A DNA stretch of 64,000 nucleotides from the NCBI RefSeq assembly GCF_044324875.1, contig NZ_CP172185.1. One strand, 5' to 3'. The stretch comes from Escherichia coli (GTDB lineage Bacteria > Pseudomonadota > Gammaproteobacteria > Enterobacterales > Enterobacteriaceae). The stretch's first letter is position 1, and every line of letters starts with the position of its first letter. Under the pieces are notes generated by a model that was given only the letters and a program-made list of their open reading frames with translations, was not told the origin of the DNA and did not search any database. Positions 17,216 through 17,995 of the stretch are shown here, piece after piece. The position numbers and the translations under genes were made by a program.

Positions 17216-17717
17216 AACCTGTTCCTTATTCTGTGAACTTCAGGTGACATTAAAGCTTTACTCCTAATGGAGAAACGACGCAATCCCAACTCAGTCAAAC
17301 AGGTAAATATTAGTCTGATTATTAGTAAAGACAATTAATCAATCACTCTCGGTGATCATATGATTTCAACTGTAATTATAAGAAAATAATGTACTGATTC
17401 TCTATATTAAACAAGTGGTTAATATATGTAAAACATTTTATTAACATTAAGTTGATTGTTGCCTTTCTTTGTATTTAATTAGTTTGTTGTGCGGTAAGTG
17501 TCTGTTTAAAAATAGCTTATCTGGTATTGCATGAAAGTGATTATTTATAGCAGATGATTATTTACGGTGAGTTATTTTAACTGTGCGCAACATCCCATTT
17601 CGATTATTCCTGTTTCATTTTTGCTTGCTAGCGTTGCGAAAAACTTTTTAACAGATTGAAATACACCCAAAACAAAAGTATGACTTATACATTTATGTTA
17701 AGTAATTGAGTGTTTTG

Positions 17718-17733
17718 TGTGATCTGCATCACA
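17718..17733. promoter_or_regulatory. CRP-binding site of the flhDC class-1 promoter
   Basis: tgtgatctgcatcaca = TGTGA-N6-TCACA; about 265 bp upstream of flhD ATG, consistent with the known long (about 200 nt) flhDC leader. Confidence 0.75.
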
Positions 17734-17995
17734 CATTATTGAAAATCGCAGCCCCCCTCCGTTGTATGTGCGTGTAGTGACGAGTACAGTTGCGTCGATT
17801 TAGGAAAAATCTTAGATAAGTGTAAAGAGCCCCTTCTATTCGTGAGGACTTATTAAATCCAAAAAAGGGGCTCTGCCTGTTGCAGCTTATCGCAACTATT
17901 CTAATGCTAATTATTTTTTACCGGGGCTTCCCGGCGACATCACGGGGTGCGGTGAGACCGCATAAAAATAAAGTTGGTTATTCTGGGTGGGAATA

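Follow-up and report, generated by a model that had tools for sequence, protein, structure and literature searches.

The flhDC regulatory region of a non-K-12 Escherichia coli carries no insertion sequence at the K-12 IS1 and IS5 targets

The stretch of Escherichia coli DNA analysed here (64,000 nucleotides, hereafter the window) almost certainly comes from a non-K-12 strain whose flhDC class I regulatory region is in the ancestral wild-type state, no insertion sequence (IS) ever having been inserted upstream of flhD. A well-studied promoter is seen here in its ordinary wild-type form, and its activation by IS elements in laboratory K-12 has been thoroughly published.

The locus has the layout that is canonical for flhDC class I regulation, with uspC transcribed divergently from flhD-flhC at a spacing of about 780 bp (Table 1), and the genes from motA onward follow flhC. 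A spacing of 777-780 bp was also found in eight other E. coli, comprising 042, O157:H7, BL21, ST131 and four further strains. The G+C content of the intergenic region 17216..17995 is 35%, versus 50.5% for the whole window. The ATG at 17996 was taken as the start of flhD, as in the current MG1655 annotation; an alternative GTG is located upstream at 17987. The intergenic length of 771 bp given by the first-pass annotation fits this GTG and becomes 780 bp when measured to the annotated ATG; length and end coordinate of that annotation did not match because two different start codons had been used. Since all mot, che and flh genes of the window are full length and FlhD and FlhC are nearly identical to their MG1655 counterparts, the flhDC locus looks functional as judged from its coding sequences.

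Table 1. Features of the uspC-flhD region and of the cutC-torY IS1 in window coordinates; positions in brackets are relative to the probable transcription start site (TSS) of flhD.
Feature	Coordinates	Strand	Remarks
otsA	15347..16780	+	
uspC	16787..17215	-	142-aa ORF; 97.9% full-length identity to MG1655 UspC; divergent from flhD
uspC-flhD intergenic region	17216..17995		uninterrupted, 780 bp to ATG
CATTTATG, empty MG1655 IS1H target	17690..17697 (-107..-100)		one unduplicated copy
TTAA, empty W3110-type IS5 target	17698..17701 (-99..-96)		one unduplicated copy
cAMP-CRP site TGTGAtctgcaTCACA	17718..17733		centre at -71.5 given the probable TSS; CRP binding presumed
flhD class I promoter (putative)	17762..17790	+	-35 TTGTAT 17762..17767, 17-bp spacer, -10 TACAGT 17785..17790
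flhD 5' leader	17797..17995	+	199 nt from the probable start; 198 nt in K-12
Leader hairpin (predicted)	17826..17874 (+30..+78)	+	arms 17826..17835 and 17865..17874, perfect 10-bp helix by folding prediction
flhD	17996..18346	+	ATG start; intact, 116 aa, 100% identical to MG1655 FlhD
flhC	18349..18927	+	intact, 192 aa; gap-free alignment with MG1655 FlhC at 99.0% identity
IS1 with target duplication	37212..37997	+	IS1 at 37221..37988, 768 bp, between cutC and torY

No IS element was detected between uspC and the flhD start, the sole IS1 match in the window being that at 37221..37988, and the ORF list contains no reading frame of at least 50 aa inside 17216..17995. Compared to MG1655 without its IS1H and to eight other E. 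coli, the intergenic region showed only point differences and indels of 1-3 nt, and its end-to-end alignment with IS-free genomes affirmed the first-pass description of the region as insertion-free. Pairwise alignment with the complete MG1655 sequence revealed a single large difference at the locus, a 776-bp block of MG1655 that consists of the 768-bp IS1H and an 8-bp duplication and is absent from the window. In MG1655 the octamer CATTTATG is present on both sides of the 768-bp IS1H, and in W3110 TTAA is found on both flanks of an IS5, at the position matching window 17698..17701. A duplicated IS target (8-9 bp for IS1, 4 bp for IS5) was not found in the window, where both CATTTATG and TTAA occur once at the site. 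The window region is not an IS-activated flhDC promoter allele.

The annotations of the two reference strains agree with the first-pass annotation, which gives IS1 for MG1655 and IS5 for W3110-type stocks at this locus. IS1H, with insA5 and insB5, is annotated between flhD and uspC at 1978503..1979270 of MG1655 (NC_000913.3), so that the MG1655 reference is not itself uninterrupted here, and an IS5 transposase gene is annotated at the uspC-flhD locus of W3110 (NC_007779.1). That the locus is a hotspot for motility-raising IS insertions in K-12, as the first-pass annotation had stated, is likewise in line with published work (PMC3531124, PMC1174868, PMC5100188), in which IS alleles at flhDC are laboratory-selected hyper-motility mutations. 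The sequenced strain of U00096 is a spontaneous hyper-motile variant whose main difference from semi-motile MG1655 is the IS1H at flhDC (EcoGene 3.0, PMC3531124), and many Keio stocks gained IS1 or IS5 at flhDC (PMC3531124). Within MG1655 stocks, cells with and without IS5 have been described side by side, the two kinds swarming at rates about threefold apart (PMC1174868). Activating insertions have been reported from -96 to -476 (PMC5100188, PMC5493358), including an IS5 hotspot at -99..-96 for which PMC5100188 quotes Barker 2004 and Wang & Wood 2011.

Precise excision leaves no trace, and IS elements are occasionally found at the hotspot in 5-Mb natural isolates; a site freed in this way of a former IS upstream of flhD could therefore present as the clean site of a revertant. 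Nevertheless, we regard such a history as very improbable and rejected it. Around 17690..17701 the window is identical to the other aligned E. coli, in which the sequence is uninterrupted, with single-copy targets and without a footprint. In one study, no less-motile revertant was reported among 5,000 colonies derived from a motile variant that carried IS5 (PMC1174868). An ancestral, never interrupted site is the simpler explanation.

This ancestral state is also the prevailing one. Queries were limited to 500 bp, a length at which an insertion the size of IS1 would break the match in two. One contiguous match of at least 80% was obtained for 17500..17999 in 5,245 of 5,426 complete E. coli genomes and for 17216..17715 in 5,359 of them. 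The uninterrupted region is the majority state, present in about 97% of the 5,426 genomes. Junction probes detected the MG1655-type IS1H junction in 62 and the W3110-type IS5 junction in 56 of these genomes. Among the matches listed, nearly all members of the IS1H-junction set are laboratory K-12 records of 4.6 Mb with the junction at the MG1655 coordinate; the set includes MG1655 derivatives, RP437 and CJ236. The IS-free state is ancestral and near-universal, and the IS-bearing alleles are derived. The first-pass annotation had presented the IS-free state as noteworthy; this view does not hold, as about 97% of the complete genomes are contiguous at the site and the IS alleles are laboratory hyper-motility variants.

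In a few natural isolates, mostly with genomes of about 5 Mb (e.g. NZ_CP182182.1, NZ_OZ040994.1, NZ_CP141204.1, NZ_AP040965.1 and NZ_OZ546963.1), the match to the flhD-upstream/IS1 junction probe had 91-97% identity or was divided in two. Such matches suggest that IS1 has inserted independently at or near the flhD hotspot outside the laboratory.

The one IS1 of the window is located between cutC and torY, where the first-pass annotation had placed it, and is absent from MG1655. It combines the length of 768 bp, the IS1 ends, insA and insB and the 9-bp duplication that define the IS1 family: it is 99.6% identical to IS1H over 768 bp, its insA and insB ORFs are intact, and the duplicated CATATTCTT flanks it at 37212..37220 and 37989..37997. 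The exact junction of this element was not found in the 5,426 complete E. coli genomes. The insA and insB genes read towards torY, the start codon of which lies 115 bp downstream of the element, and the insertion could alter torYZ expression. On its other side, the MicL sRNA is intact at 36713..37020, the IS1 being situated about 200 bp downstream of it.

This element also bears on the reliability of the assembly. IS1 and IS5 repeats are a classic cause of short-read misassembly, and a real IS copy upstream of flhD might have been collapsed or skipped by the assembler. However, a full IS1 with both junctions and its target duplication was assembled 20 kb away, and therefore IS copies were resolved in this sequence. 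Moreover, a skipped IS normally breaks the contig or leaves a duplicated target, neither of which was seen at flhD. An assembly artefact is thus hardly credible and was rejected in favour of a genuinely uninterrupted site.

Over its entire length the window aligns collinearly with MG1655 1932237..1996966 and has the same gene order, at an identity of 97.3-98.2% and with about 1,290 mismatches over 64 kb. This identity excludes any K-12 lineage, for which near-identity to MG1655 or W3110 would be expected. The first-pass annotation had left the choice between a different K-12 lineage and a non-K-12 strain; the latter stands, and the former is contradicted by the identity of 97.3-98.2%, the TCACA sequence in the CRP site (see below) and the absence of yecT. 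Among 5,426 complete genomes, the closest was that of the O158:H23 strain CFIAFB20140388 (99.3% over 25 kb), strain 042 showed a local identity of 99.7-99.8%, and the O158:H23/042-like range was 99.3-99.9%. That the window derives from a K-12 stock which never gained an IS, such as MG1655 of the CGSC 6300 type or BW25113, has a negligible probability and is ruled out by the 2% divergence from MG1655: IS-free K-12 stocks do exist (PMC3531124, PMC1174868) and the gene order is that of MG1655, but the mismatches noted above, the missing TCACG substitution and yecT segment, the extra IS1 at cutC-torY and best matches to non-K-12 strains all speak against it.

Whole-window alignment to MG1655 revealed only three structural differences, namely IS1H, the yecV/yecT segment and the cutC-torY IS1. 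Two of these concern IS elements, and the claim that the IS landscape differs from that of MG1655 was borne out, the window lacking IS1H at flhD and carrying an extra IS1 at cutC-torY. The third lies between flhE and argS, where 39 bp of the window (33624..33662) stand in place of 770 bp of MG1655 (1961799..1962568) that contain yecV and yecT. A tblastn search for YecT gave no match in the window.

The flhD promoter could be assigned by homology. We infer the TSS at 17797, since the published IS5 hotspot at -99..-96 corresponds to the TTAA at 17698..17701; this places the centre of the CRP site at -71.5, as published, and the -35 and -10 hexamers were assigned on the same basis. With this probable TSS, the window displays the characteristic flhDC arrangement of a CRP site centred at -71.5 upstream of a weak sigma-70 promoter. 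The CRP sequence TGTGAtctgcaTCACA is found intact exactly where the first-pass annotation had located it. CRP activation of flhD is established according to Soutourina 1999, as cited in PMC5493358. A generic sigma-70 scan made no call at the flhD promoter, as expected since this promoter is weak and activator-dependent. The promoter element does not vary among any of the aligned E. coli. Other E. coli share with the window, without any difference, the CRP site (eight non-K-12 strains), the promoter and the leader's first 30 nt.

In the promoter-proximal half-site of the CRP site, K-12 MG1655 and W3110 read TCACG (substitution at 17733), whereas the consensus TCACA is found elsewhere. TCACA is carried by the window, eight other E. 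coli, E. albertii, E. whittamii and Escherichia sp. E1V33 (two K-12 versus 12 other sampled sequences). From this distribution, the flhD CRP site of K-12 looks like a lineage-specific departure from consensus, and the TCACG substitution could be one reason why IS-free K-12 is poorly motile.

The 5' leader of flhD is typically about 198 nt long and is conserved at its 5' end and in the half next to the Shine-Dalgarno sequence, and the leader of the window conforms to this pattern. Across E. coli and three other Escherichia species, conservation covers the first ~30 nt and the 3' half. Within the conserved 5' part, at 17801..17814, lies TAGGAAAAATCTTA, which we take to be the RcsAB box. Between these conserved parts, at 17826..17878 (about +30 to +82), the leader differs from that of MG1655 at approximately 13 positions within some 50 nt. 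This allele is rare, because only 38 of 5,413 genomes match the window at 99% or more over 17500..17999.

The divergent segment is predicted to fold into a hairpin, the perfect 10-bp helix of which is common to the window and 042 alleles. The commoner allele in the sample, shared by four non-K-12 strains, O157:H7 included, has two mismatches in this helix, and ST131 on the one hand and K-12/BL21 on the other each repair one of them in different ways. Covariation in the hairpin was not significant in a sample of 10 strains with seven distinct rows and 88.6% of cells paired: two pairs were changed on both sides, a count that was equalled in 256 of 500 shuffles and that therefore does not demonstrate the helix. 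The same hairpin received no support in E. albertii, E. whittamii and Escherichia sp. E1V33, for which different folds are predicted; in these other Escherichia species it is the hairpin segment of the leader that evolves fast. The fold of the whole leader was no more stable than that of shuffled sequences, with z = -0.78 for the window and +0.07 for MG1655. No Rfam family was detected in the intergenic region; the matches elsewhere in the window were MicL, C0465 and three tRNAs. We consider the hairpin as a selected structure a lead rather than a finding. It might be speculated that the perfect helix changes how accessible the leader is to sRNAs, CsrA or RNase E, an effect to which the consensus CRP half-site that was lost in K-12 could add. 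In this scenario, which we regard as unlikely, the 042-type leader allele with its perfect helix would set a lineage-specific post-transcriptional level of FlhDC, and natural motility set-points would be tuned by point alleles and not by IS elements.

As for the regulatory behaviour of the ancestral, IS-free region, the K-12 literature suggests by analogy that cAMP-CRP bound at -71.5 would act on a weak sigma-70 promoter (TTGTAT/TACAGT) within an AT-rich divergent region of 780 bp, from which transcription would proceed through the ~199-nt leader into flhD and flhC. Both K-12 targets, CATTTATG for IS1H and TTAA for IS5, lie single and side by side at -107..-96, and in K-12 laboratory stocks IS1 or IS5 inserted anywhere from about -96 to -476 raises flhDC transcription and is selected on soft agar. 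The lower basal motility predicted in the first-pass annotation derives from a comparison of isogenic pairs within K-12 and cannot be transferred to the strain of the window; the low motility of IS-free K-12 stocks is not simply to be assumed here because the lineage and the CRP-site and leader alleles differ.

At this locus the unusual genome is the MG1655 reference, almost every E. coli having an IS-free flhDC promoter, and it is the IS pattern together with the 2% divergence that marks the window as non-K-12. The motility of wild strains should not be predicted from K-12 IS genetics. For comparisons of flhDC expression between lineages, small leads are offered by the CRP-site substitution of K-12 and by the polymorphism of the leader hairpin.

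Among the known flhDC alleles, that of the sequenced MG1655 with IS1H (1978503..1979270) has homologous flanks that are 98% identical to those of the window, and its target CATTTATG is present in the window. Unlike the sequenced MG1655, the window has neither IS1 nor a target duplication at flhDC; the two also differ in the CRP site, which reads TCACG in MG1655, and in the leader allele. Compared to W3110 and MC1000-type strains, which carry IS5 at -99..-96, the window keeps the TTAA at 17698..17701 without IS5. The IS-free K-12 stocks (CGSC 6300 MG1655 and BW25113, described as semi-motile) have an uninterrupted intergenic region like that of the window, but the window belongs to another lineage, with 2% divergence and different CRP-site and leader alleles. 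Natural E. coli of the 042, O157:H7 and ST131 types share with the window the divergent layout, the spacing of 777-780 bp, TCACA, the promoter hexamers and the start of the leader, and have no IS. The closest resemblance is to strain 042, which is 99.8% identical to the window over 17500..17999 and differs from it by two intergenic substitutions, one of them in the leader.
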